From Thermoproteota archaeon (GTDB taxonomy: Archaea > Korarchaeota > Korarchaeia > Korarchaeales > Korarchaeaceae): a stretch of 39,445 nucleotides of DNA. Each line of letters starts with the position of its first letter. Within the stretch, counting starts at the first letter, position 1. A model generated the notes under the pieces. It saw only the letters and a program-made list of their open reading frames with translations, made no database searches and was not told the DNA's origin. Positions 1 to 39,445 of the stretch are shown piece by piece. A program made the position numbers and the translations under genes. The stretch is taken from positions 1 to 39,445 of the forward strand of contig JALSOH010000007.1 in the NCBI GenBank assembly GCA_026986575.1. The letters run 5' to 3'.

Positions 1-23
1 CGGCTATATCTAGCGAAAAATAG

Positions 24-3000
24 GATTCTAGCCTACCTAGAAGGGATTGAAACTCCTCGGAGGATGGTGGGATCATCCTCTCCAACTCGGATTCTAGCCT
101 ACCTAGAAGGGATTGAAACCATGCATGTTTCAGCACTAAAGCACCACTTAAACAAGATTCTAGCCTACCTAGAAGGGATTGAAACAGCAAGATGCAGAGT
201 GATCTCAAGGAGGAGCTTTCCGAGATTCTAGCCTACCTAGAAGGGATTGAAACAGTCAGGGTGTCATGATGGCGTTTCAGGGCATAATGGATTCTAGCCT
301 ACCTAGAAGGGATTGAAACAATTGGTACGATGTGATGTATGGAAGGCTCTAATATGATTCTAGCCTACCTAGAAGGGATTGAAACCTGGATGACAGGTAA
401 CCCTTTCAGAATTCATGAGCGGATTCTAGCCTACCTAGAAGGGATTGAAACTATCCCGATCCCTTTATTCTAGATGACATTATCTTCGATTCTAGCCTAC
501 CTAGAAGGGATTGAAACTAGTCTCTATCATCTTGTTCCAGTTCATCTGTAATGGATTCTAGCCTACCTAGAAGGGATTGAAACTGTAGGGGTGTTCTTGA
601 TACACCAATTGAATTGCAGATTCTAGCCTACCTAGAAGGGATTGAAACTCTGAAATTCCATATTCCACCTATCAGCCTTCTTCCGATTCTAGCCTACCTA
701 GAAGGGATTGAAACTCGCTCTATCGGTATCATCACGAATTACAATCCATGGATTCTAGCCTACCTAGAAGGGATTGAAACCGAGTTGATCGATTGCTGCG
801 TCATAAGTATATCCAGGATTCTAGCCTACCTAGAAGGGATTGAAACCTAGTTTGAGCGATTCTGAGTTCCTCTGAAACCCAAGATTCTAGCCTACCTAGA
901 AGGGATTGAAACACGCGGAGGTCTACTACAGGCTGGTAGCCGAGGGAGGATTCTAGCCTACCTAGAAGGGATTGAAACTGAAGGCCCCATCATAGCGCCA
1001 GATAATGGAACAGAGATTCTAGCCTACCTAGAAGGGATTGAAACAGTTACCCGGAGGGACTACGGTAACCGATACGTTCTGATTCTAGCCTACCTAGAAG
1101 GGATTGAAACAACGATGGGGCACCGGCCGACGCTTCGTCAGTCATAGATTCTAGCCTACCTAGAAGGGATTGAAACAGTAAACGCGAGTATAAGTTTCTA
1201 GCAATGGAATACGGATTCTAGCCTACCTAGAAGGGATTGAAACAGGAGGCGCTGATCAAAGATGAGGCGCCTGATCAGGATTCTAGCCTACCTAGAAGGG
1301 ATTGAAACAGGGGGGTTCCGTGATGCCTGAGGTCGAGGAGTTGGGATTCTAGCCTACCTAGAAGGGATTGAAACCGCGTACATGCAGGTGCCCACGTTTC
1401 AGGTGATCTTGATTCTAGCCTACCTAGAAGGGATTGAAACTCCCACACGACTTCGAGTCCCCCGAACTCGTGAGCAGATTCTAGCCTACCTAGAAGGGAT
1501 TGAAACCACGGATCGGAGCCTAGGTACTTAGTTGTCTTGAGGTGATTCTAGCCTACCTAGAAGGGATTGAAACCAGTGAGAGTTGCTCGCAACCACCTCT
1601 TCGTTATCAGATTCTAGCCTACCTAGAAGGGATTGAAACAACTCAATAAATGCGAGCCATTCGCGGATGAATTTGAGATTCTAGCCTACCTAGAAGGGAT
1701 TGAAACTGCCTCGGCCTCCTCCATTCTTCCATCGACGATCCTGATTCTAGCCTACCTAGAAGGGATTGAAACTGGTACCTGTCCTCGCAGTACGCCTTCT
1801 CACTGAAGGATTCTAGCCTACCTAGAAGGGATTGAAACCGGGGAGGAGAAGATGAGCCTCCAGACAGTTGATCTAGATTCTAGCCTACCTAGAAGGGATT
1901 GAAACTGTGAAGACAGGTAAGTGCCCCAGAGGACGCAGTACGATTCTAGCCTACCTAGAAGGGATTGAAACACTGAGCTGAGAACATTGGTGGATGAGAT
2001 ACGCTGGGATTCTAGCCTACCTAGAAGGGATTGAAACATAACGAAGAGAGGCTCATCTCGTTAGATCTTGGTTGATTCTAGCCTACCTAGAAGGGATTGA
2101 AACAAACCATAAATACATCAACGAAAAACGCCGTGATAGGATTCTAGCCTACCTAGAAGGGATTGAAACTTCTACTCTCCCTATGAGGCGCTCCTCATAA
2201 CCAGGATTCTAGCCTACCTAGAAGGGATTGAAACTTCAACTACTTCAACTTCACACAACCCATCAACCTGGATTCTAGCCTACCTAGAAGGGATTGAAAC
2301 CTGATTAAAGAGTTGCTGAAGTTTCTTGCTATAACGGATTCTAGCCTACCTAGAAGGGATTGAAACTTCGCAGAGCGACTCAATAGACCTCTCTTTACTA
2401 TAGGATTCTAGCCTACCTAGAAGGGATTGAAACTAATAGATAATTTCCCAGATGAATTAGATACCGTATGATTCTAGCCTACCTAGAAGGGATTGAAACA
2501 AAGAGAAAGGCTATACCTTTGATGCCGCGCTAGAAGATTCTAGCCTACCTAGAAGGGATTGAAACTCATTACTGGCCATATGGGAGAGGTTCGGTATATC
2601 GGATTCTAGCCTACCTAGAAGGGATTGAAACATGCAGTCTCTACCAGTAGGTCTCTTACATATTCATGATTCTAGCCTACCTAGAAGGGATTGAAACCAT
2701 CCTTTACACATATCTTGAGGTCACCTTCACTGGGATTCTAGCCTACCTAGAAGGGATTGAAACTACTTCTCGAGTATACCGAGGTATCCTTCTATCAGGG
2801 ATTCTAGCCTACCTAGAAGGGATTGAAACTAGCGCGTATCACAATAGTTCTATCACTATAGTGTGGATTCTAGCCTACCTAGAAGGGATTGAAACTCCAG
2901 TATAGGCCAGTTCTCCCCATTGAATATATCAGATTCTAGCCTACCTAGAAGGGATTGAAACCGATGATCAGTAGCCTCCTGACAGCAGCCTTGACATGAT

Positions 3001-4020
3001 TCTAGCCTACCTAGAAGGGATTGAAACTTCTTCGCGACGATAGTGCTAGCCGTGGCCGTGGCGAGATTCTAGCCTACCTAGAAGGGATTGAAACCACTCC
3101 GTGGTGCAGCCCACCGACTTCAGGACAATAGGATTCTAGCCTACCTAGAAGGGATTGAAACACGCCCTTGATCCTCCCGCTGTCATCCCTCACAGCCGAT
3201 TCTAGCCTACCTAGAAGGGATTGAAACTGTGGAGGTGGTAGCATGGTGAGAAACGTTCCCAAAGATTCTAGCCTACCTAGAAGGGATTGAAACTATCCCC
3301 TAGCCCTCAGTAGCTGGGCTAGGATCTCTGATTCTAGCCTACCTAGAAGGGATTGAAACGCGATATAGTCGAGGCCTACATCCGTGGCTATATCGGATTC
3401 TAGCCTACCTAGAAGGGATTGAAACCCCCAAGGCCTTCCTGGTGATCCGAACCCTCCAGCAGGATTCTAGCCTACCTAGAAGGGATTGAAATTTTCCTGA
3501 TCTTCCCGTCCTCATACCATTCCTTCGGGATTCTAGCCTACCTAGAAGGGATTGAAATCGTTCGTGCCGGTCGGAAAGAGGTTGGTGCCGTCTTGATTCT
3601 AGCCTACCTAGAAGGGATTGAAATTCCCATAGACCTCAAAGTACTTCTCCGCCAGATCCTGATTCTAGCCTACCTAGAAGGGATTGAAATCGCTCATCGG
3701 TCCACTGAGTATCCACCAGCTCCACCGATTCTAGCCTACCTAGAAGGGATTGAAATGTAGTTTTCTCTCATCCATTCGGTGAAGCTGTCAAGGATTCTAG
3801 CCTACCTAGAAGGGATTGAAATTCCGCCGATCCTCTGCTCACCAGCCTATGCAGTACAGATTCTAGCCTACCTAGAAGGGATTGAAACAGAAGGCGGAAA
3901 CTGAGGGCCTCCCCACTCCCGAAAGATTCTAGCCTACCTAGAAGGGATTGAAACTACGCATGTGTATATCTCGGCGGGTAAGAGTATGGAGATTCTAGCC
4001 TACCTAAAAGGGATTGAAAC
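24..4020 (+). CRISPR. CRISPR array 1: 61 copies of 30-bp repeat GATTCTAGCCTACCTAGAAGGGATTGAAAC, 60 spacers of about 35-38 bp
   Basis: Repeats counted at about 66-bp period from 24 to 3991. The repeat has a TTCTAG-N5-CTAGAA hairpin and the archaeal 3' ATTGAAA(C) handle, implying + strand transcription. The last repeat (3991) is mutated (CTAAAAG) and is followed by a 36-bp spacer-like segment and a GATTCT remnant at 4057, marking the trailer end. The array may continue left of the window. Confidence 0.99.
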
Positions 4021-9225: not shown

Positions 9226-9611
9226 TCACAGATCCTCCAGCCACCTGATCAGCTTCTTCCTCGCCTTCTCAGGATCCTCTCCCATGGGGGCCTTGAGGAA
9301 GGATATCTGGTAGATCCCCTTCATCGTCTTCAGGTTCAGCGTGAGTATGTTGACCTGATCCCTGTTCCACCCCTGCACCTTCATGCTATCCGCCGTGATC
9401 AGCCTGACATGGGGTCTCTCAACCCTTTCCTCATCACCTATCCACCAGTCGGCGATCTCGTTCCTCTCTAACTCGAAGCTCCTCCCCCTGAGGATCCTAT
9501 GGAAGACATTTGCCCTGAAAACCAGCCTGTTCCTCCTTATGAGGAGCTTTCCCCCTGAGTCATACTTGGACCCGGGGACGACAGCACCACACTACCCAGA
9601 TCCTCCGACAA
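9226..9611 (-). pseudogene. Frameshifted small protein, PH/GRAM-like (not in ORF track)
   Basis: An open minus frame of about 120 codons reads GAVVPGSKYDSGGKLLIRRNRLVFRANVF...KKLIRWLEDL* with host codon usage but no start near its 5' end. The probable TTG start (9611, MSEDLGSVV) is in another frame. Confidence 0.55.
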
Positions 9612-10082
9612 GCGTACCGAGCACCTATTATCATCTGCACGGGGTCCTTTTTCAGTTTTTCCTTAACGAATCGACGGGAAAATACCATCGTATTTAATGA
9701 AATGATCTTCCTATGTCAACCCGGTGGGGCGTCCTCCTAGATGGAAAAGGGTGAAGAATTCATTTTCAAGCTCGAATATGTTAATCCCTAAGTAGGAACG
9801 TGCGTCCTTGCATCTTTCATGCTGAGCTAAGCTTGAACGTTCAACTCACATCGGGAGGGGGAATATCCATGTCAACACCTCCCCATCCCCCCTCGAGAAG
9901 TAGGAGGATGGATCCTCCGAACCGATCGCAGCGATCCTCCACAATCCTAGCATCTCCCATCCTAGACCTTTGCAGCCCCGAAGGAGTCTTGAGGCTGTGC
10001 GTCGATTTGGCGGCGATCAAGCCATGGGATCATCTTCGAGCCTGAAGGTTCCCTAAAACGGGTGCCGCCCTTCCCACCTTCC

Positions 10083-21437: not shown

Positions 21438-22049
21438 ATGGAACGACACTATACAATGAGAGAAGCTGCTAAGATCCTGGGCGTCTCAGTCAGAACGATC
21501 CAGCGATGGGATAAATCGGGAAAGATCAGGTGTATCCGCACTCCTGGAGGGAAAAGACGTGTTCCGGAGTCGGAGATAAGGAGGATACTCGGCCTGAGTG
21601 AGGAGCGAGTTGTGGTGGGCTACGCCAGGGTCTCCTCTAGATCGCAGAGGGACGACCTGGAGAGGCAGGTTCAGGCCATAAGGGAATACGCGAGCCAGCG
21701 GGGCTACGAGCTTGCCGAGGTGTTAACTGACGTCGGCTCTGGCCTGAACGAGCGGCGTAGAGGCTACCTGAGGCTGCTGGAAATGGTAGCTGAGCGCAGG
21801 GTCAGCAGGGTGATAGTCACTTACCCGGACAGGCTGACCAGGTTCGGCTTCTCGACGCTAAAATTCCTCTTCCAGGCGTTCGGCGCTGAGATAGAGGTGA
21901 TCAACGCCAGGGAGATGACGCCGAGGGAGGAGTTGGTGGAAGATCTCATAGCGATAGTCACGTCGTTCGCCAGCAGGCTCTACGGTAGGAGGAGCCACAG
22001 GTACAGGAGGCTCGTTCAGGGGGTGAGAAAGCTTGTCTCGGAGGAGTGA
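21438..22049 (+). CDS. tnpA: IS607 serine-recombinase transposase
   Basis: N-terminal MerR-like HTH ([28 protein letters not shown]), YARVSS catalytic Ser, [28 protein letters not shown]. Confidence 0.96.
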
Positions 22050-23193
22050 GGTTATCAAGAGCTATGCTGTGCCCGTAAAGGCTCCCAAAGACCTCATAGA
22101 TGCCTACCTAGAGGTCAAGAGGAAGGCGCTGGAGGCTGTGATAGCTTACGTATCCTACAGCAAGGGGAAGGCCAGGCTCCGGCTAAAAGCCGAGGAGAGG
22201 CGCGAGATCAGGAGTGAGCTGCTCAAGGATTGGCCGTACGCGAGCCACTACATCGACTCCGCCATCAACTCAGTCATAGGCCTAGTGAAGGGTTGGATAA
22301 AGCTCTACAACAGGGGTAAGGCGAAGAGACCACCGGAGATAACGAGGAGGATGGTCTACATCAAGAGCACGCTGTTCAGGATCAAGGAGAACAAGCTGAT
22401 CATCAGGATAGTAGCCAGGAGGCGCTACCTGGAGGTGGACCTGTCGAGGTTCGACTACCTGCCCAGGGACTACGACTCTATTGGGGGCCTGCTGCTAACA
22501 GATGACAGGCTCTACATCACATTCAAGCGCTCCTCCGAGCCTAAGGAAGTCAGGGGGTGGTCCGCATTCGACGTTAACGAGGCCAACGTGACGGAGGCGA
22601 GGGACGGATTCGGAGTGATCAGATACGACCTCAGAGAACTCTACCACATCCACAGGGTCTACGAGGAGAAGCGCCGGAGGATGCAGGCGCTCAGGAGGAC
22701 CCACCCTAAGCGCTCTAGGAGGCTCATGGAGAAGTATGGCAGGCGGGAACGCAATAGGGCCAGGGACTTCCTCCACAAGCTGACCACCGGGATAGTCAGG
22801 GAGCTGGCCGCGCTGAACTACGGGATCATCTTGGAGGATCTGAGCGGCATAAAGGAGAGGACTGCCAGGAGAGGGAGGGCAAGCAGGAGGATCAGGCGGA
22901 GGCTCAGCAAGTGGGACGCCCGCACGCTTCAGTCCATGCTGGCCTACAAGGCCAGGTGGCTGAGCCTTCCCGTGCGATTCGTGAACCCCGCCTACTCCTC
23001 CAGGACCTGCCCCGTGTGCTCAGCGCCTCTGAAGGCCTATCGGGGCAGGCTCATGCGGTGCGAGGGCTGCGGGCTGATCATCGACAGAGACGAAGCTGCA
23101 GCCCTCAACCTTCGGATGCGGGGCGCCCGGGGTTCCCCCGAGAGGGGCGGATCTACGGAGATGTGCCCAAGGGAGGCGTATGTCCACAAATGA
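22033..23193 (+). CDS. tnpB: RNA-guided endonuclease TnpB
   Basis: RuvC-I AFDVNE, RuvC-II IILEDL, Zn ribbon SRTCPVC..CEGC, Ruv[14 protein letters not shown]. Confidence 0.93.
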
Positions 23194-30591: not shown

Positions 30592-33135
30592 GTGAGCGCT
30601 TCTATGAAGAACTCGCTCGCGCTTTATTTGACCTTGGCTCTCTTATCCTTCCTAATCCTCACCTCCATTATCTTCATTGATTGGGGGCGTACTGAGTCTT
30701 CAGCACCCACCTCCAGCATGGTAACGGCCCCAAATGGATCAGAGGATTCGAGGGATTCGACAAGTTCCACGACTCCCTCAGCGACCACCCGTGGGGCGTC
30801 TGTCGCATCCCCGCCATCATCGCATCCGGGCCCGGATCCCGTCACTGAGTACGCGGAGGAGAGAGGTGCTGGAGAGATCTCAAACCACCTTAGACCTCTT
30901 GGAGCGGATGGCCGATTGGATCCAGAAGATAAAAAGCTGGTGGACTTAATAGCGTCCCTTCCATCCGAAGAGCTGGACGATGACCTCATCAGGACGTTGG
31001 ATGAAGTGGTCTCCGATGGGAGGGTTGATGGGGGTGAGCTCTCCCTGCTGGACGACAGGTACGTCAATCCAGAGCCTCCATCGATCATGAGATTGAGCTT
31101 GATCCCGAGTCGGGTCGTCAACGGGAAGATTTATGGGCTGAGGCTCTCCTTCCAGGTTGCGGATTCTGAGACTCCGATAGCCTCTGCAACACTCGAATGG
31201 ATCCCTTTAAGGTATGGGGGTCTACCGGATAGGGCCTTCCCCAGTGAGGACACTAGGATCCTCCACCTGACGCCCTCCGATGGCGGGTATGGAGATCGGG
31301 TGGAGGAGTTCCACGTAGCGATAACCGATTTCAGGGGCGGCAGGGAGTACGAGATCAGGGTGGAGGTCGAGGACAGGGCCGGAAACAGGCAAGTGACCAC
31401 GATCAAGACCCCCTACATCAGGGAGTACGAGGACGTCGCGGGGCGAGACGGCCAGCTAGTGGGCGCGATTTACTACCCCAAGTACGACCATGGTAGACGA
31501 CGGAAGAGATGCAACGACGCGCCCCTCCTAGGAGAGTATGACCCGGAAAACGATGTGGTCATCTCCAAACACATAGACTGGGCGTCAGGACATGGTGTGG
31601 ACTTCTTCTTGGTCAGCTGGCGGGGTCCCGGTAGTTATGAGGACTCGATTCTGAGGGGCCACATAATGAGGAACCCCTTGGCAGGGAGCATGAGGTTCGC
31701 CGTGCTCTATGAAGCCGACAGGCTGGGTGATCTGGACCCCGCAGAGGCGGGGCAAGTGTTGAGGAACTACATCGACTACCTGAATGGGACGTATTTCAAC
31801 GATCCCCACTACCTCAAAATAGAGGGTAAACCCGTACTGGGGATACATGTTGTGGGAGAGCTGCCAGGGAGCGTTCTAGAGGCCTTATCCGAGTGCAAGG
31901 GGGAATACGACCTCTACCTCGTAAGGAGCCTCGATCACCTCCGGGATCGATCTGAGGCGGCGCGATTGAGGTATTTCGACGGGGTTGTTCTGGGCAGTAC
32001 TCCCGACCTCCTGGGAGCGATGGGGGGTTCCAGCCTAGGCTACCGTGAGTGGCATGCATATCTGATGGCCTCTGGAATCGATTTCATCCCTTCAGTCGCG
32101 CCCCCTCTGGATGACGGAGCAGCGGATGGGGAGAAGGTTTCCTCGAACATTGAGGTGTTTAAGGAGCGGCTCATAAGGGCCCTTCACCATTCCTGGCCTA
32201 GAAAGGTGGTCTTAATATCATCTTTCAACGATTGGGCCAGCTGCAATCCCATAGAGCCCTCTGAGGAGAATGGGATTAGGTACCTAGATGCCGTCCTTGA
32301 GGCTGTGGGGGAATACGAAAGGAGGCAGAGGGGGTTGAGGGGGATAGTATACATCCTCCCCTCCGGGGCGTGCACCGATGCTTGGGAGAGGAGGTACGGA
32401 GACAGGATCTACTTCTACGTCCACGCCAACTTGTCCGATTACAGGGACATGATCGAGAGGGATTTCTCTCTGATAAGCGAGAATTACGACACGGTCATCG
32501 TGATCATTCCGGCTGATGACACTGAGCTCTTCCTACACAACCTCAAAGTCATCAGCGATATTGCCAGCGAGCACTCCCTGCGAGTCCTCTGGGGCATTTT
32601 CCCGAAAGAAAAGTACGGGATCGAGGAGAGCTACCTGAGGTCGGGGACCGCCATGAACGAGCTGGTGATAGAGCTAATGGAGTACCTCTCATCCCTCGAT
32701 TCGACATGGAAGGTGGCCGTGTGGTACGGCTGGGAGGGAAGGCAGGATTATAGGGAAATACTCCACTTCTATCGCAATCTACCCGAAGATCTGAAGGAGG
32801 GATTTGCTATCTGGCTAGATGAGGAGTATGCTTCGGTATTAAACGGATTAGCAACCGTCGAGCCCGGTTTCTTCGTGGTAACCGAACTGTACAGTGGAGA
32901 GGAGATAGCGAGGTACTCTGGGAGGTTTGAGCGCCAGGTGGTGATCACCGGGCACGAGGCAGGCAGTGCGGGGGATTGGTTGAAGGGGATATGTCCCCTG
33001 TTGAGGTCGATCAGAACGTCTTATGTCGGTATATGGATGTTCTACGACAGGGGAGATGGATCAGGAGAGAGTTACGGAGCCTATTTCCCGGGTGAGGGAC
33101 TGGCAGATCCATGGGACTGTATTAAAGGGGGATAA
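30592..33135 (+). CDS. Membrane-anchored GH99-like domain protein with Ser/Thr linker and a second C-terminal barrel-like domain
   Basis: N-terminal TM; VGAIYYPKY, PLLGEYD, HIDWASGHGVDFFLVSW, YLKIEGKPV, ISSFNDW..IEPS. Confidence 0.7.
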   Translation: MSASMKNSLALYLTLALLSFLILTSIIFIDWGRTESSAPTSSMVTAPNGSEDSRDSTSSTTPSATTRGASVASPPSSHPGPDPVTEYAEERGAGEISNHLRPLGADGRLDPEDKKLVDLIASLPSEELDDDLIRTLDEVVSDGRVDGGELSLLDDRYVNPEPPSIMRLSLIPSRVVNGKIYGLRLSFQVADSETPIASATLEWIPLRYGGLPDRAFPSEDTRILHLTPSDGGYGDRVEEFHVAITDFRGGREYEIRVEVEDRAGNRQVTTIKTPYIREYEDVAGRDGQLVGAIYYPKYDHGRRRKRCNDAPLLGEYDPENDVVISKHIDWASGHGVDFFLVSWRGPGSYEDSILRGHIMRNPLAGSMRFAVLYEADRLGDLDPAEAGQVLRNYIDYLNGTYFNDPHYLKIEGKPVLGIHVVGELPGSVLEALSECKGEYDLYLVRSLDHLRDRSEAARLRYFDGVVLGSTPDLLGAMGGSSLGYREWHAYLMASGIDFIPSVAPPLDDGAADGEKVSSNIEVFKERLIRALHHSWPRKVVLISSFNDWASCNPIEPSEENGIRYLDAVLEAVGEYERRQRGLRGIVYILPSGACTDAWERRYGDRIYFYVHANLSDYRDMIERDFSLISENYDTVIVIIPADDTELFLHNLKVISDIASEHSLRVLWGIFPKEKYGIEESYLRSGTAMNELVIELMEYLSSLDSTWKVAVWYGWEGRQDYREILHFYRNLPEDLKEGFAIWLDEEYASVLNGLATVEPGFFVVTELYSGEEIARYSGRFERQVVITGHEAGSAGDWLKGICPLLRSIRTSYVGIWMFYDRGDGSGESYGAYFPGEGLADPWDCIKGG

Positions 33136-33390
33136 CTGGCACTGGGCCGTGCCCCACCCAAGACGATCAGGCCTCGGAGGTCTCATTTCTGCTTTCAGGT
33201 GCCCCTCCCTCTCAAGTCATATCGCTCTTAGAACGTTGAAACCCTCTCCTGTCACCTAGAATCGGGAAAACCCCATGAGGGCCTATGCCTCCGGGGCGTG
33301 CAACTTCGTCCCGTCAAAAGCGTGCAATCTCTTGGAATTTCCGGGAAACAGGATTAAATATTGGTCACTCTGGCCCAAAACGGTGGTGTA

Positions 33391-33990
33391 TTGTCCATAG
33401 GACTCGTGACCACGGTGGTAGGTTTACTGGTGGATTCGGTAGAGGTCGTGAGGCTCGGGAAGGAGCTGAAGGGCTACCTGTCGAGGAGGAAGAGTTCCGA
33501 TGAGAGGATAGACATACCAAGCGACCAGGAGGACAGGATGAAATCCCTCATCGGTGGTGTGATCGGATCAAAGCTGGTGGACGCTTTCATATCCTACGTG
33601 GAGAGCGGCGACCCAGGTCCGATGATGGAGGTCATAGATGGGGTGGAGAGGAGAAAGGAAGTGAGCGCATCCATCGACGTGATAGGCAGGAACCCTGAAG
33701 TCATGTACAGGAGGCAGTTCGGCAGGGATCCCGACTACATCTATAAGTACGTTCCAGATCAGGGTGGTTTGAGCGTAAAGGAATTCCCTCTGGTAGCGTT
33801 CAGCTCGGCGAAGTTTCTGGAATTGATAAACAACCTGCATCCTTCCGCCAAGAAGAGGCTCATCCTCTCGGCACCCGTGATCTTGGGATTTCAGATAGGT
33901 CAGCTCGTGGGAACCACGGCAAAGTTCTATCCCCTGCACCTAGTGAGGGAATCCGGTTACGCCGAGGTTAGCCCCGTCGTCAGGTACTGA
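33391..33990 (+). CDS. N-terminal hydrophobic helix + SAVED-like (single lobe) domain protein
   Basis: C-terminal RLILSAPVILGFQIGQLVG...FYPLHL..SGYAEV matches the SAVED C-terminal pattern (hL(F)xxPxxLxFxhG...Y). TTG 33391 is preferred because an ATTAAATA box lies at about 33353. 9 bp upstream of csx1. Confidence 0.6.
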   Translation: MSIGLVTTVVGLLVDSVEVVRLGKELKGYLSRRKSSDERIDIPSDQEDRMKSLIGGVIGSKLVDAFISYVESGDPGPMMEVIDGVERRKEVSASIDVIGRNPEVMYRRQFGRDPDYIYKYVPDQGGLSVKEFPLVAFSSAKFLELINNLHPSAKKRLILSAPVILGFQIGQLVGTTAKFYPLHLVRESGYAEVSPVVRY

Positions 33991-33999
33991 GGCGATGCC

Positions 34000-35963
34000 A
34001 TGTCCCACGTCCTAGTCCACGTGGCTGGGGACACCCTGCTGAGGGGATCGAGGAAACTCTACGAGGTTAGGGCGCCTGGACGAAAATCCATTCGGTTGAG
34101 GGCTTCATCCACCGCACTGCCCGTCTCCATGGAGGCGCTGGGCAGGGGGAAGGCCGACCCGGGCAAGCTCAAGATGATCGTTCCCCTCCCCCACTCCCTC
34201 GTAACCCACGCCGAGAAGTTTTGGAGGCTCCCAAGGATGGGGGAAGGAGTGGAGGAGTGGATCCTAGACGCGACCCGGAGACTAGTGGTCGAATTCCCGA
34301 GGCTACTCGTCAAGGACGTGAATGAGGAGTTACCGGGGGACTTCGGAGGCCTGCTTGACGGCTCTCCTCTATCTTGGCTAGGGTGGTCCAAGTCAGGGGC
34401 ACCTTCACCCTGCCTCTGGAGGACGGGACTGGCGTGAGGCTCAAATTCGAGAGAGGCGGGCCCTCCCACATATTCGCCGAGGTTTACCGATCTCTTAGGG
34501 AACTGGGAGATGTGGAGAGGGTGGTCTTCGATCTGAGTCAGGGGTGGAATCACCTGACCGTAATGGCCTACATAGGAGCACTGGCGTACGCTGAGGTGAA
34601 CTGGGTGAATCTGATCCCCCTGACCTCAATGCCCGTGTTGGTCCCATCGGGTAGACCCCCCACGAGGACACGCCCAAGCCCTGATCCATACCAGGAGGGG
34701 TTAGCAGGGGCAGCAGGCCGAGCCGTCGAGCTCCCAGTGGATTTCATGGATGTCGAGGAGGCTCAGGTGATTCACGGACTTGTTGTAACTATATCGAAGT
34801 TGCTGGCCCACAGCAGACTTAGCCCCGGCATGATAGCGGATATATGGGAGAATGTAGTGAGGAGGGAGTTCGATCGATACGGAAACCTAGAGAAGGGTAA
34901 GGAGCTCCTGAAATCCCTGATCAGGCTCAGGAAGGTCTCTTGCGCGCTCGATACCACCATGCTAACCTACCTGCATCACGCTTTGAGGAGCTTCAGCGAA
35001 TCCCTCCATTCTATTCGCGAGATGCTCAATTACCTCAAGGAGAGGATGGATAGAGGGGACTACGTGGAGCGCCTGAAGCCGAATCCGGATGCCTTCGCTG
35101 AGGGCTTTGATGAGATCGTGATAGAATACGAGCTTGAGCCTCCCCTGTCCTATCCGCTGGCGGATTCAGTGAGCTCCTTCGCCCTCAAGATAGGGATCGA
35201 TACGTTGAATCATCACTTGAGGAGGGATCACGCGTCCCTGAGGTTCGCTCAGGAGGTCAGGTCCCTCTACCGCTCGTTGGGCATGCACCCGAACGAGGTC
35301 TTGATAGCTAGAGAGCTAGCTATGATCGATAGGAGCGGCAACCTCAGAAGCGTAAACTGCATGGTGAGGGAGGCGCCGGGAGGCACAGCCTTGGGCTACA
35401 TGAGGTCGTACATCGAGGAAATGGCCTGCGAGATGGTTAAAAAGAGGATCAGAGGATCGGTCGCCTCCGTCCGTGATGTTTACCCGTTCGCGATTCTGGG
35501 CAGGAGGTGCCCGGATGTCGTGAGGGACGCCTATAGAGAGACCAGTAAGTTCGATAGGAGCTCAACCTTGGTGGATCTCCATGAGGAGAGCCTGAAATGG
35601 GAAATCTTCAGGACTAAAGCGGTAGATTTGATGGAAAACTCTTCGTGCAAGGACGATTGGTGGGTCAGGAACTTCCTCTCGGCGGATAAACTGATGAGGG
35701 GAAGAGACGCGGTCAGCCCGGAGGAGGTCTCTTCACTCCTCAGGAACCTTGCCGTCCATGTTGGCCTCCAGCACTTCTCCGTGAGGAATCTAGTGCCCGT
35801 CCTCGATCGTGGCGGCGTGATCGAGGATGTGGAGATCCACTATTACCATGAGCTCTTCGAGGGGCTGGAAGATCTGGCCAGTGGGAAGTTGAGGGGAAGG
35901 TTGGATGGGATGCCCGAGGACCTCATCAGGGAGATCGGGTGTCTATGCGATGTAGGGATCTGA
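34000..35963 (+). pseudogene. csx1: Csx1-like CARF-HEPN ribonuclease split by one frameshift (about 654 aa if repaired)
   Basis: ORF 34000 carries the CARF start (VLVHVAGD..YEV..LPHSL). ORF 34374 continues with VFDLSQGWNH (DxTHG variant) and HEPN RNLAVH (RX4H). One added base at about 34359 joins them (LLD-RLSSILARVV). Confidence 0.8.
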
Positions 35964-36306
35964 GACGAGATTGGCTCGGGTTGGGCTTTTAGCATCAACC
36001 TCACCTACTCGGCTGGTGATGAAACACTCTCGGAGATCATCAAGGGGCCCCAAGCGGTGAAACGAAGGGGGAGAATGAGTGAGATGAGAATACGTCCTCG
36101 CGCGACACGCGATGGCTGGGTGGAGGATGGGTAGCCTCCCAGAACGATCGTCTCTGGTTGGATTAAAACTCGTAAACCCCCATAAAGCGGAAATCATTCC
36201 GCTAGAAGCTCAGTACCGTCCTAGACCCGAGAGGACCGTCGGTTCAACTACTCGTAAGTCGAATCTGGCTATTCATGCACTAGCGGGAGGCTCCCTAGCA
36301 CGTCGC

Positions 36307-37068
36307 TCACTCCACAGCCTCCCTCATGGCCTCTCCTATAGCCCTACCCAGGTCTGTGGGTATGATCCTGCCTCCGGATACCTGTATAAGGCCTGAGAAC
36401 CTGAGGGCAGCTATGTAGTCTTCCCCAAGATCCTCAAGTTCCGACCTGCTGCCTCCCTCGCTGAGGATCCCCGCCACCCTCCTGACTATCGAATAAGGCA
36501 GTGGAAGCATGGGTATCCTCATCACGCTGTAGGTCAAGGGGGGATACATGAGGATCTGCAGCTCCCTATTCTCCCTGTAGTAACTGAGAGGATCGTCCGA
36601 TGAGGCGAGTTCCTCTATCTTCGGTCTCAGCCTCTCTAGCTCGATGTTAACCACCCTCACATCTGGCACGACCACATGGTAGATACCGGATACCGCAAGC
36701 ACCTGCCCCAGAAGGGCCACCTCCACCGAGACGCTCTTCCTCCCCCCTGAAATGAGTAGGTAGACTGGCTTCTCCAGTCCAGCTATCTCTGAAGCCGCTA
36801 TTCTCATGAAATCGAAGGCCACGTTCTCATTAACGATGTCCTCGTAGTCCAGAGTAAGGCTAACCACCTTGGCCTTGGGATACCTGTCCTTCACGGCTGC
36901 CTCAACTAGCCTGGCGCCTTCCTGAACGCGTTTGTCCTTTGTAAGGATCAGTTCCACGGTTTTTGGCTTCATGTTGTACTGCCAGTCCAGGTACTGGATC
37001 AGCTCTGTAACGATGGGTGGGCTCAGGCCGAGAGGGGCTAGCAGGGAGTAATCACTGAAGTAACGCAT
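36307..37068 (-). CDS. CARF + winged-helix protein, Csx14/Crn1 (Sso2081-like) ring-nuclease family
   Basis: LAPLGLSPPIVTE, LILTKD, YEDI, LLISGGRKSV, IYHV; C-terminal wHTH-like LRFSGLIQVSGGRIIPTDLG. Confidence 0.8.
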   Translation of the reverse strand: MRYFSDYSLLAPLGLSPPIVTELIQYLDWQYNMKPKTVELILTKDKRVQEGARLVEAAVKDRYPKAKVVSLTLDYEDIVNENVAFDFMRIAASEIAGLEKPVYLLISGGRKSVSVEVALLGQVLAVSGIYHVVVPDVRVVNIELERLRPKIEELASSDDPLSYYRENRELQILMYPPLTYSVMRIPMLPLPYSIVRRVAGILSEGGSRSELEDLGEDYIAALRFSGLIQVSGGRIIPTDLGRAIGEAMREAVE

Positions 37069-37375
37069 GTGTGTTCAACCCGATACGCCAGATAAAGATG
37101 ATCCATTTGTTACCGGCAGCCGCGCATTAATGTAAAAATGACAGGGCTCTAGTAGTTTCAACTCACAGCTGCCGATGAGGTTAATGTACAGGCACGGGTC
37201 CAGTTGCCGATGGGTCGGGGGTGAATCAAATCCTGTCTTAGATTCACTCATGCAGATGTAACTTATCGCAGACAGCGCATGACTGCACTCGAACCCTCCC
37301 AAACTTTCACTTCGGAGGGAGAGGAATGAAAGGGCGGGCAACAACCCTTATGGTGGACCTGCAGCGAATCCCCTT

Positions 37376-38131
37376 ATGGCGGAGACTCACGTGATCACAT
37401 GCGGCATCAGTCTCCTCATGAACACTATCAGGTCGACTGAGGAGGACATTCTCTCCTCGATACCAGAAGAAAAGCTCCGCGAACTCTCCAACCCCAGAAG
37501 TCTATCAGAAGCACTAAAGTCCCTCACTGGAGACGAGAGGAGGGCTCTCGAGGAGGCGATGCTCTCCAACCTGAGAAGGGATCCGAGGAGAGCCAGCGCT
37601 GAGATGAATGCCTTCCTCGGGTATATAAACGAGTACTCCACGGAGGTTAGGGATCTACACCTCTTAGTCTCCGACACCGACGCCGGGAAGCTAGTAGCGA
37701 AGATTCTCGACGAATACCTTACAGAGAGTGGGTACAACGTCTCCAAGCATGTGGTCGCTGGCTTCGGCTCCGAGGACTTCGACGCTGCTCTCAAGGAGCT
37801 GAAGGAGGTGGTGGGATCCATAGTGGGGAGATCGGGCGATGTGGTCCTCAACCTCACCGGTGGATTCAAGGCGGAGATAGCCGCATTATCGGTTCTTGCC
37901 GCTGAAAGCGGTCTCAGAGCGTACTACATACATGAGGCCGCCAAGAAGATCGTGATCTTGCCGACGGCCAGCCAGCTGAAGGTGAAGGTTACCAAGTGGG
38001 AGAAGGCCCTAGCCATCCTCACGGCCATCCTGAGCTTCCCGATCGACTCGTTACTCGGCTTCCCCCTCTTCGTAGTAGCTGAAATTGCAATATTCGTGCC
38101 GACCCTCTGGATAATACTGAAGAAGGCCTGA
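37376..38131 (+). CDS. APE2256/Sso1393-family CARF protein with C-terminal hydrophobic (about 2 TM) hairpin
   Basis: VITCGISLLMN, SAEMNA, LLVSDTDAG, LNLTGGFKAE, YYIHE, then ALAILTAILSFPIDSLLGFPLFVVAEIAIFVPTLWIILKKA. Confidence 0.85.
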   Translation: MAETHVITCGISLLMNTIRSTEEDILSSIPEEKLRELSNPRSLSEALKSLTGDERRALEEAMLSNLRRDPRRASAEMNAFLGYINEYSTEVRDLHLLVSDTDAGKLVAKILDEYLTESGYNVSKHVVAGFGSEDFDAALKELKEVVGSIVGRSGDVVLNLTGGFKAEIAALSVLAAESGLRAYYIHEAAKKIVILPTASQLKVKVTKWEKALAILTAILSFPIDSLLGFPLFVVAEIAIFVPTLWIILKKA

Positions 38132-38259
38132 AGAGATAACTGGTGAGCAAGCGCTGCGTGATACTGAGAGTTTGCCGTCACCCTCGGTCAAGAGAGCGTT
38201 CCGAAGGTGGAACTGGAGGATGCCTCGCGCGGAATGCGAGAAAATGATACAATTTGTTC

Positions 38260-38405
38260 CTTTCAACTCCCTTTTCGGGATTCTTGTGCCTTTAAATAAC
38301 CATTTCTGATAAGGTCTGTTAGAACTTTCAACTCCCTTTTCGGGATTCAGGACGTCCACGTCAAACCTAGCGAACATGTTACTTTCAACTCCCTTTTCGG
38401 GATTC
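38260..38405 (-). CRISPR. Mini CRISPR array 2: three identical 24-bp repeats GAATCCCGAAAAGGGAGTTGAAAG, spacers of 33 and 41 bp
   Basis: CTTTCAACTCCCTTTTCGGGATTC at 38260, 38325 and 38382 on +; the TTGAAAG 3' end indicates - strand. Confidence 0.92.
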
Positions 38406-38540
38406 TAAAGGTGTAATACCTCCCTTCAATATAAATCTCCCCTCTAATAAGTACAATTTTTAACAGGCTTTCGCTGCACCTCGACCTGTAAGGGGTATAT
38501 AAAGGGCAGCGAATATATGAACTACAACTCATATGGAATA
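38406..38540 (-). promoter_or_regulatory. AT-rich leader/promoter of mini array 2
   Basis: Low-GC stretch; on the - strand a TTTATAT TATA-like box with purine-rich upstream sequence lies about 25-30 bp before the first repeat. Confidence 0.65.
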
Positions 38541-38769
38541 AGCATCTAGCAAGCGCGAGTCTGCTCTATCCCGTTCAGCGCTGGATGAGGATGCCTCGCC
38601 AGAAGAGGTTCTTGATGAAGACACCGCCCTCGACATATCTACAGCTGTGATGCAGAGCGCTCGCTAGCTATCATGTCCCGAAAAAGGCCTCGAATACCCT
38701 CCAACAGATCCAATGGGAGTGATCAGGCTTTCAACAGGACGATCAGCAACGATGTCTGGAGGAGGGCAT

Positions 38770-39135
38770 CCTATTGCAGGAGAAGGGAAGCTCAAGAGGG
38801 CGTCGAAAGGGAAGGACATTAATGCACCAACTACCGCCTTCTCGTGCCTGAAGAGTCGGATCTTAGGTCCCATCTCCGGCAGGAGCTTCACCACCTCTTG
38901 AGTCCCTCGTGTATGTAGCAGGCATTCAAGTCGCTTCCAACAGCGATGGCACCCATGGCTGCCTCCTCCGTTTGAGGCCGTCCGTCAGGTCCAGTTTGAA
39001 CTCTCCCTTCTCAGGCTTACTATCCTCCTCAGGAGTTTCTTTATCCTGTTTCACCGCTCATTTGTGGTTCTGGGAATCGAATCCAAGGTCCTTCCTAATC
39101 TCCACTCCATCTTCGCCCATCAGCCCTGTCCATGT
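38770..39135 (-). pseudogene. Decayed paralogue of the CARF-TM gene (37376..38131)
   Basis: Minus-strand fragments GFDSQN, LDLTDGLK, LNACYIHE and VVKLLP..KIRLFRHEKAVVGALMSFPFDALLSFP align with GFGSED, LNLTGGFK, LRAYYIHE and IVILP..KVKVTKWEKALAILTAILSFPIDSLLGFP; contains stops and frameshifts. Confidence 0.75.
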
Positions 39136-39188
39136 CGACTACGGACCCTCGGGAAAGAATTTATTACCCTCATTCCTATCTTTACTCG

Positions 39189-39445
39189 ATGTCTCTAATA
39201 GAGGAACTCTCGAAAGAGCTTGAGGCACATCCCGAACTTGCCAAGAGTATAGCTAAGAAGCTAATCGAGTATATAGAGCCAGAGCTAAGTCTGGCCTATC
39301 AGATTTCCAAAATGGTCGATCAGATAACCAAATTCGTCGAAGAGCAGACCAAGATCTGGCAGGAGATCAAGGCGATCAAGGAGGAGATCCAGAAGATATG
39401 GGAGGAGATAAAGGAGCTGAAGGAGGAGCAGACGAGGCTGAAGGA
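39189..39445 (+). CDS. Coiled-coil heptad-repeat protein, truncated by the window end (archaeal DUF3782/PD-(D/E)XK-associated type)
   Basis: MSLIEELSKELEAHPELAK...EEQTKIWQEIKAIKEEIQKIWEEIKELKEEQTRLK. Confidence 0.7.
   Translation, partial: MSLIEELSKELEAHPELAKSIAKKLIEYIEPELSLAYQISKMVDQITKFVEEQTKIWQEIKAIKEEIQKIWEEIKELKEEQTRLK

Follow-up and report, generated by a model that had tools for sequence, protein, structure and literature searches.

The stretch of DNA analyzed here (the window) is an entire contig, C7, of 39,445 bp, from the genome of a korarchaeal Thermoproteota archaeon. This genome (G000) consists of 11 contigs totaling 1.91 Mb and was estimated to be 99.69% complete with an estimated 2.48% contamination; below, C with a number denotes a contig of G000, and the other G numbers denote genomes of relatives. 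Near the 3' end of the window lie four protein-coding genes, called A, B, C and D, together with a small CRISPR array and its leader, a pseudogene fragment and the start of a coiled-coil gene (Table 1). An original prediction, made from the DNA sequence alone, had read the region as a stand-alone cyclic-oligonucleotide signaling island detached from any cas locus and fed in trans by a type III complex. The four genes with CARF/SAVED-type motifs on which it was built were all recovered in place, and by profile matches all four proteins fall into catalogued CARF/SAVED families; the labels CARF5, CARF7 and SAVED4 follow PADLOC profile names and passages in other papers. No cas10, cas1 or cas6 was found in the window, either in the NCBIfam scan (33 open reading frames (ORFs) of at least 100 amino acids) or in the Pfam scan (27 plus 9), as had been claimed, and beyond the island the profile scans of the window returned no cas gene.

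Table 1. Features at the 3' end of the window.
Feature	Positions	Strand	Description
A	33391..33990	+	199 aa; helices at residues 1-85, one SAVED-like lobe at 88-199; short SAVED4, Csx15-like
B	34000..35963	+	Csx1-type CARF-HEPN; ORFs 34000-34437 (145 aa) and 34374-35963 (529 aa) in different frames
C	36307..37068	-	253-aa CARF5 / Cas_NE0113; Crn1-like CARF at residues 1-140, conserved C-terminal ~100 aa
D	37376..38131	+	251-aa CARF7/APE2256; S12, K165; C-terminal hydrophobic hairpin at ~211-249
Mini array	38260..38405	-	three exact 24-nt repeats, two spacers (41 and 33 nt)
Leader of mini array	38406..38530	-	conserved TTTATATA box
D pseudogene fragment	38784..38968	-	second copy, D residues ~167-230, two frames
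Coiled-coil gene, 5' part	39132..39445	+	runs off C7 and continues on C4; exact 78-nt overlap

The surroundings of these genes are extended by a second contig. The last 78 nt of C7 are the exact reverse complement of the last 78 nt of C4, and joining the two turns the gene left open at position 39132 into a 284-aa coiled-coil frame, residues 8-283 of which align to residues 30-279 of a 280-aa paralog on C10. This gene and its C10 paralog both belong to PADLOC family C3a181, which is CRISPR-linked (E 2.4e-25 for the part on C4). Through the join, cas4, cas2 and a broken cas1 (two frames, one TGA) are placed about 1.1-2.9 kb past the window and point towards the leader and array, so the island is not detached from cas genes as had been supposed. 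A 15,441-nt Logan contig of run X1 passes from positions 39357-39386 into sequence of the C4 end and is consistent with the join, though the shared 30-mer is repeated. At several contig ends, namely positions 39351-39428 of the window and the ends of C2 and C5, coiled-coil genes contain 21-nt tandem repeats, and these seem to have broken the assembly.

The three-repeat array reported in the original prediction was confirmed, with exact repeats at 38260-38283, 38325-38348 and 38382-38405. It has the properties of a CRISPR array: identical repeats, unique spacers, a repeat sequence belonging to the family of a larger array, and a leader. The repeat, which on the minus strand ends in a GTTGAAAG-type tag, is identical at 23 of 24 positions to the repeat of a 42-repeat array that lies beside the D ortholog of G015, and about 125 nt next to the first repeat align with the leader of that array in conserved blocks that include the TTTATATA box. 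With as many as 3 mismatches allowed, the 1.91-Mb genome has no other copy of the repeat (0 for the reversed control), and no Rfam family reached its threshold (best CRISPR-DR25, 18.9 bits against 36). The spacers gave only chance-level matches to a phage collection (E 0.2-0.6 in 3 records for spacer 1, none for spacer 2) and had no second site in the genome itself. At 38673-38696, in the orientation opposite to the array, lies a degenerate 24-nt repeat (79% complementary over 19 nt), which the D pseudogene fragment overlaps with its 3' end. That the two degenerate repeats of G009 are on the D strand suggests an inversion of the region here.

Gene B belongs to the Csx1-type CARF-HEPN family, as predicted for a long Csx1, but its frame is broken, which had gone unnoticed. 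In a DNA alignment the copy in this genome shows 2 inserted nucleotides near 34363-34366 and an in-frame loss of 6 nt; the frameshift caused by the insertion, at about codon 122, splits the CARF domain, and B is not a single intact frame. Relatives have a single open frame of about 655 aa (665 in G009, 662 in G019, 645 in G020 and 656 for relative P0011), and three assemblies have similarly truncated products on record, two of 526 aa and one of 509 aa. The second ORF on its own gave weak matches to the PADLOC Csx1 and Csm6 profiles (E 4.8e-6 and 5.9e-5) and one to Pfam Csx1_CARF below the cut-off (E 0.031), and P0011 gave nothing significant in Pfam, NCBIfam or single-sequence PDB searches; profiles were needed. 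A 9-sequence family profile matched Sso1389 (2i71, E 4.2e-7), Csm6 (6o6x, E 2.2e-4) and PF1127 (4eog, E 0.0014, residues 4-214), and Pfam Csx1_CARF was found in 7 of the 9 members, with a best E of 3.3e-10, which places a CARF domain in the family. The family shares with the Csx1/TM1812 CARF-HEPN RNases (Sso1389, PF1127) an N-terminal CARF with a DxSxGWN motif and a C-terminal R-N-x3-H HEPN motif, and one source names the relative P0012 as TM1812 family; it differs from them in being long (~655 aa) and divergent, and in the frameshift of the local copy. In the second ORF the HEPN motif (R-x4-6-H) survives intact as RNLAVH at residues 457-462, and all 9 aligned relatives share its Arg. The dN/dS of B is 0.27-0.29 against G009 and G020, compared with 0.25 between the G009 and G020 copies, and in the G020 copy a TGA lies close to the C-terminus. 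The break appears to be recent. The Cmr locus on C10 contains a paralog of B that is intact and 815 aa long. A further ORF on C4 (874425-874811; locus 9414-9992, minus strand), about 8 kb from the C4 end among toxin-antitoxin-like genes, resembles only the HEPN C-terminal end of B, at roughly 42-47% identity over about 85-100 aa, and may be another Csx1 remnant.

That the B frameshift, the mini array or the neighborhood reflects mis-assembly of a metagenome bin was considered, given the 11-contig assembly, its estimated contamination of 2.48% and the contig ends that fall inside repeats. Contigs of run X1 match 33000-36435 and 36506-39371 without differences, contigs of the independent run X2, from another study, cover both the frameshift site (34185-34441, no gap) and the whole mini array (38254-38411, no differences), and the gene order is common to G009, G020 and G019, all of which makes this explanation highly improbable. 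One 3872-nt contig of X2 differs from the window at 33 places, which points to a near-identical strain; as an X2 contig spans the frameshift without a gap, the break in B is real and common to that strain. A joint in one X2 contig that skips 38284-38382 was considered as a variant of the array and set aside as repeat collapse, another X2 contig covering the whole array.

Protein C matched Pfam Cas_NE0113 (60.4 bits; cut-off 23) and PADLOC CARF5--CARF (E 1.3e-65, over positions 5-245 of 246). Over the CARF domain its family profile matched Sis0455 (7z55, E 2.4e-15) and Sso2081 (E 1.3e-14), small Crn1 enzymes that are the closest solved relatives of this domain. The residues S16, R110 and K111 of C align with S11, R105 and K106 of Sso2081, which in passages of PMC9638899 are the residues named for catalysis in Sso2081/Sis0455; among 12 aligned relatives of C, R110 and K111 are nearly invariant and S16 is kept in 10. 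Unlike Sso2081 and Sis0455, C bears an extra C-terminal part of about 100 residues that is conserved in 12 relatives, lies under the NCBIfam cut-off for Crn1, and fits PADLOC CARF5 (E 1.3e-65) far better than CARF_m13 (E 2.2e-18). This C-terminal part had been predicted to be a winged helix-turn-helix; the CARF assignment held, but the C-terminal part had no PDB match with the family profile and residues 170-253 no usable match in the ESM Atlas.

Protein D matched Pfam Cas_APE2256 (101.9 bits, E 3.4e-29; cut-off 24.8) and PADLOC CARF7--CARF (E 2.9e-41), and its matches among PDB sequences were Sis0811 (7pq2, E 1e-8) and Sso1393 (3qyf, E 6e-8), large Crn1 proteins composed of CARF7 plus a helix-turn-helix (HTH) domain. 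Both key residues of these proteins are kept: S12 and K165 of D align with S12 and K169 of Sis0811, so named in passages of PMC9638899, and in an alignment of 23 sequences S12 is nearly invariant and K165 invariant. Unlike them, D has no C-terminal HTH but a hydrophobic hairpin of about 40 residues in its place (best 19-residue Kyte-Doolittle (KD) value 2.26), and D scores 38.4 bits on the NCBIfam ring-nuclease profile NF040951, the cut-off of which is 600. The tail is hydrophobic in 17 of 21 homologs, with a KD of 1.6 or more in 15 of them, and 4 distant homologs have a soluble tail (KD 0.06-0.29). With the APE2256/CARF7 match and the conserved hydrophobic tail, the predicted CARF joined to a transmembrane (TM) part was substantiated. 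The decayed fifth copy was likewise recovered: by tblastn, residues 202-230 of D match at 38864-38784 (E 4.3e-5), the related protein P0025 at 38903-38784 (E 4.9e-4) and, in another frame, P0031 at 38968-38894 (E 0.002). A pattern search of genome contigs for D loci returned 132 matches, none of which was confirmed. Both A and D are found on one 100,614-bp contig of another assembly.

The hairpin of D raises the possibility, which is held here only tentatively, that the protein is a cA4-gated (cA4, cyclic tetra-adenylate) membrane effector comparable to Cam1, Csx23 and Cap1 in reverse topology, one that may limit itself through ring-nuclease activity of its own. D shares with those proteins a cyclic-nucleotide sensor domain, membrane helices and a CRISPR context; its hairpin is conserved and carries a P-x-D-S-x-L-G motif, more distant relatives bear a soluble C-terminal part instead, and a dN/dS of 0.27 indicates constraint. 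According to passages of PMC9704534 and bioRxiv 10.1101/2025.11.13.688252, CARF proteins fused to TM domains are many and already a known kind, and those studied depolarize the membrane. In the characterized effectors Cam1, Csx23 and Cap1 described in the same passages, however, the TM helices are N-terminal and the sensors are not of the CARF7 ring-nuclease type, and D does not have the Cam1-type arrangement of N-terminal TM helices followed by a sensor, its domain order being reversed. The closest solved relatives by sequence are moreover the ring nucleases Sis0811 and Sso1393, and a 40-residue hairpin may be a mere anchor.

Protein A was identified through profiles. On its own it had no Pfam match at E up to 1, no NCBIfam match and nothing significant in a single-sequence PDB search, and it matched PADLOC SAVED4--SAVED at E 7.2e-8 over residues 109-186 of a 209-aa ORF. 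A search of 5.8 billion proteins gave 8 matches, and a profile run against 1.84 billion representatives gave 17 at E 0.001 or better, with sizes of 52-233 aa. All 20 members of the family matched SAVED4--SAVED (best E 1.4e-39), 14 of the 20 also matched SAVED4--SAVED_TM, and Pfam SAVED (PF18145) was matched by 11 of the 20 (best E 2.7e-9), which by these profiles assigns A to the SAVED4--SAVED family. An AlphaFold2 model built from the 20 family sequences reached a predicted local distance difference test (pLDDT) value of 90.5 and a predicted template modeling score (pTM) of 0.88, and showed five N-terminal helices (2-85) followed by a single alpha/beta lobe, in agreement with the predicted helix plus half-SAVED architecture. 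It superseded a first model from 8 close homologs, which was unusable (pLDDT 43.1). When the model was compared with structure representatives (VIA), the top 13 chains were all SAVED proteins (Z 6.2-9.5), aligned through the second lobe. The matches included the viral SAVED ring nuclease 9r8s, Cap5, TIR-SAVED, CalpL, Cap14, Cap4 and SAVED-CHAT, the best being 9r8s and Cap5 (7rwk), both with Z 9.5; leads from Foldseek and the ESM Atlas agree with a SAVED fold. Against PDB sequences the family profile had 9r8s as its sole significant match (E 2.4e-9), with both 9r8s lobes matched, and no chain named Csx15. A is not a canonical two-lobe SAVED protein, since it has one lobe (88-199), to which only the second lobe of SAVED chains aligns (residues 100-233 of the 238 of 9r8s, for example).

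A single lobe of this kind recalls Csx15, which passages of bioRxiv 10.64898/2026.10.26.761840 and bioRxiv 10.64898/2026.01.21.700848 describe as a half-SAVED ring nuclease or cA4 sponge that dimerizes. A homodimer model of A, a symmetric one with its interface at the conserved helix 159-175, scored 0.80, against 0.00 for the best of 3 controls; its runs had 98% or more of their contacts in common, and the pLDDT of the partner was at least 87. Among proteins solved as same-chain pairs, 20 of 30 attained this score, compared with 1 of 23 among those solved as single chains. As solved SAVED and CARF dimers exist, this result may reflect likeness rather than binding; the model nonetheless predicts the single-lobe homodimer typical of Csx15. 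Further likenesses are the N-terminal non-catalytic helical extension of A and its position beside a Csx1 gene: passages of bioRxiv 10.64898/2026.10.26.761840 list small Csx15 groups with N-terminal TM-helix, EAD, HTH, Schlafen or Csx1 fusions, and relatives of A are found in cas loci. The family differs in being tiny (17 representatives among 1.84 billion proteins), and the likeness of A to Csx15 is one of architecture. The original prediction had counted A, with D, as one of two membrane-linked sensors; D is secure in this respect, but the N-terminal helix of A carries D15 and E18 and is borderline hydrophobic (KD 1.7-2.1 in 8 close relatives and 1.0-1.6 in 8 of 11 more distant members). With an Asp and a Glu in such a helix, no clear membrane anchor is evident, and a membrane anchor is possible but not secure.

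A signal for these proteins could be supplied by two Cmr loci elsewhere in the genome. Consistent with the prediction of type III ancillary genes with no effector complex nearby, Cmr (III-B) loci were found on other contigs. C10 carries a complete locus (cas10, cmr3, cmr4, cmr5, cmr6, cmr1) with a 9-repeat array, and a second cas10 is split between the ends of C10 (2-1441, minus strand) and C3 (3-1931, plus strand) with cmr3 and cmr4; cas6-cas1-cas2-cas4 with a 26-repeat array lie on C6. Both Cas10/Cmr2 proteins, which were found with TIGR02577 (PF18211, Csm1_B, had no match in the genome), have palm2 domains. The intact GGDD cyclase motif that had been sought was absent from both: the Cas10 of the C10 complex has SAGDE and the split copy GGDQ. 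In passages of PMC11229360, AGDE appears on a list of variants from loci with effectors and GGDQ does not, and the change from GGDD to GGDQ makes the split Cas10 a likely cyclase-dead paralog. Supply of cA4 in trans from the Cmr locus with the AGDE-type Cas10 is plausible. A CD-NTase, which had been reported as lacking in the window, is also absent at cut-off genome-wide (SMODS, best 16.7 bits against 26.5). The repeat of the C6 array is also present at the 3' end of C3.

The distribution of the four genes in relatives was examined next to their neighborhoods. Of 36 genomes of the family, counting G000, 8 have D, 9 have A and 15 have C, and B was found in 10 of the 61 genomes searched (again counting G000). 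The order AKR-(glycosidase)-A-B is shared with G009, G020 and G019, and the A-B pair occupies one chromosomal site in 4 genomes; G009 also has C (minus strand) and D (plus strand), followed by its two degenerate repeats. Elsewhere A and D are associated with cas loci or arrays. In G007 A is followed downstream by cas10-cmr3-cmr4-cmr5, and G002 has the order cas6-A-cas1-cas2-cas4; D adjoins the 42-repeat array in G015, a 9-repeat array with a different type of repeat in G021, and the coiled-coil gene in G004. D was not found in G020, where a 6-kb block (C38 of that genome, 3447-8881) splits B from C and interrupts the island; the block contains TreT-like, ROK kinase and TPS/TPP trehalose-synthesis genes and a Lipoprotein_15 secreted-repeat protein. 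Purifying selection acts on A, C and D: A has a dN/dS of 0.07 and D one of 0.27, and C, measured against G000, gives 0.09-0.13.

These results bear on whether the region is a functional, self-contained multi-arm island, with a Csx1 RNase, an off-switch and membrane-disrupting A and D proteins, that stands apart from cas genes and is fed in trans. Intact A, C and D genes with low dN/dS, the A-B pair at one chromosomal site in 4 genomes, the hydrophobic hairpin kept in 17 of 21 D homologs, the SAVED_TM matches of 14 of the 20 A-family members and the Cmr loci elsewhere in the genome all speak for it. Such an island is nevertheless unlikely, as its RNase arm is frameshifted in three assemblies and an independent sample, an adaptation module and an array leader adjoin it, the helix of A contains D15 and E18 and is of low hydrophobicity in most distant members (8 of 11), and the A and D genes of relatives sit inside cas loci or beside arrays.

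The reading favored here, with a probability of about 70%, is that the region is the ancillary, cyclic oligoadenylate (cOA)-handling end of an eroding but otherwise conventional CRISPR locus, and that its genes belong to catalogued families. After the join to C4, the minus strand would read broken cas1, cas2, cas4, the coiled-coil gene (on the other strand), the D fragment, the leader with three repeats, and then D, C, B and A. In the proposed scheme cA4 would be made in trans by the Cmr complex of C10, the Cas10 of which has the motif AGDE, and would activate Csx1-type RNases. B would have been one of these until the recent 2-nt insertion, and the intact 815-aa Csx1-type paralog in the Cmr locus would remain. 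C, as a Crn1-like CARF, would bind and cleave cA4, as would D, a ring-nuclease-type CARF7 presumably held at the membrane by its C-terminal hairpin, and A, as a dimeric half-SAVED of the Csx15 kind, would bind or degrade it. The surviving genes would then mainly damp or localize the signal. Within this scheme the analysis established the protein families, the fold of A, the frameshift, the array and its leader, the join of the contigs and the synteny, whereas the ligand, the enzymatic activities and membrane insertion are inferences. C and D, and probably A as well, resemble cA4-binding proteins or cA4 ring nucleases; the Crn1-type residues kept in C and D and the Csx15-like half-SAVED nature of A tilt the content of the region to off-switches rather than killing arms. 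Signs of erosion are the insertion in B, the D fragment, the two-frame cas1, and the 3 repeats as compared with 42 in G015 (two, degenerate, in G009).

Several observations weigh against the reading of a worn-down cOA-handling end. The overlap that joins C7 to C4 falls within the 21-nt tandem repeat, and no spanning read was seen. C is below the NCBIfam cut-offs for Csx14 (TIGR03642, 77.7 against 90.35) and Crn1 (NF040581, 31.7 against 125), and neither Cas10 has the canonical GGDD. Passages of PMC9638899 report that TsCard1 keeps the Ser and Lys of the CARF site yet does not cleave; as S12 and K165 are thus also found in CARFs that only bind, D could be a membrane effector and not a ring nuclease. 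With purifying selection on A, C and D, and perfect repeats behind a conserved leader, the island is not simply dead, and the term eroding fits only B, the D fragment, cas1 and the size of the array. Finally, because the dN/dS of B here is no higher than that between G009 and G020, either the break is recent or both pieces may still work.

Under the favored reading the region would be a worked case of type III signaling genes that outlast the decay of an RNase, cas1 and most of an array, with three putative cA4-binding or cA4-degrading proteins staying under purifying selection. A would be an archaeal helix-plus-half-SAVED relative of the newly characterized Csx15 group, and the small korarchaeal D subfamily appears to couple a ring-nuclease-type CARF to a membrane hairpin, so that membrane-localized control of cA4 is conceivable. 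The findings leave the current understanding of these systems unchanged. The tail-anchored ring-nuclease-type CARF of D is the sole feature here for which no earlier description was found: in the literature apart from supplements and the 2020 CARF census, neither korarchaeal CARF genes nor a ring-nuclease CARF joined to a C-terminal membrane part were found described. Relatives of A or D may already be listed in supplementary tables of the Csx15 and ring-nuclease papers. It is possible, if doubtful, that D represents an undescribed archaeal class, a tail-anchored ring-nuclease CARF7, usually located beside an array, that acts either as a reverse-topology cA4-gated effector or as a tethered ring nuclease, and that with A and C it makes up a set of 'brakes'. 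If so, a membrane-tethered D would shape where cA4 persists in the cell, and A (Csx15-like half-SAVED), C (Crn1-like) and D would be a conserved set selected even after local loss of the RNase.

Other features of the window and genome were also recorded. Two conserved genes of unassigned role recur by arrays and Cmr/cas6 loci, on C6 and C10 of this genome, in G015 (its C2, 6431-9719) and in G004; the first encodes about 520 aa with a central winged helix-turn-helix and weak Csa3/CARF3 matches, the second about 480-570 aa. About 10 kb upstream of the signaling island, positions 21438-23193 hold a mobile element in which a gene for a TnpB-family RNA-guided nuclease (E 8.3e-34) comes after that for an IS607-family serine recombinase (NCBIfam, E 1.9e-70). 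At the opposite end of the window, positions 23-4020 contain an array of 61 copies of a 30-nt repeat, which the original prediction did not mention and which is cut by the start of the contig. Of these copies, 54 reach the Rfam threshold for CRISPR-DR2. The last repeat (3991-4020) is degenerate, which places the leader and any cas genes of this array beyond the 5' end of the contig.

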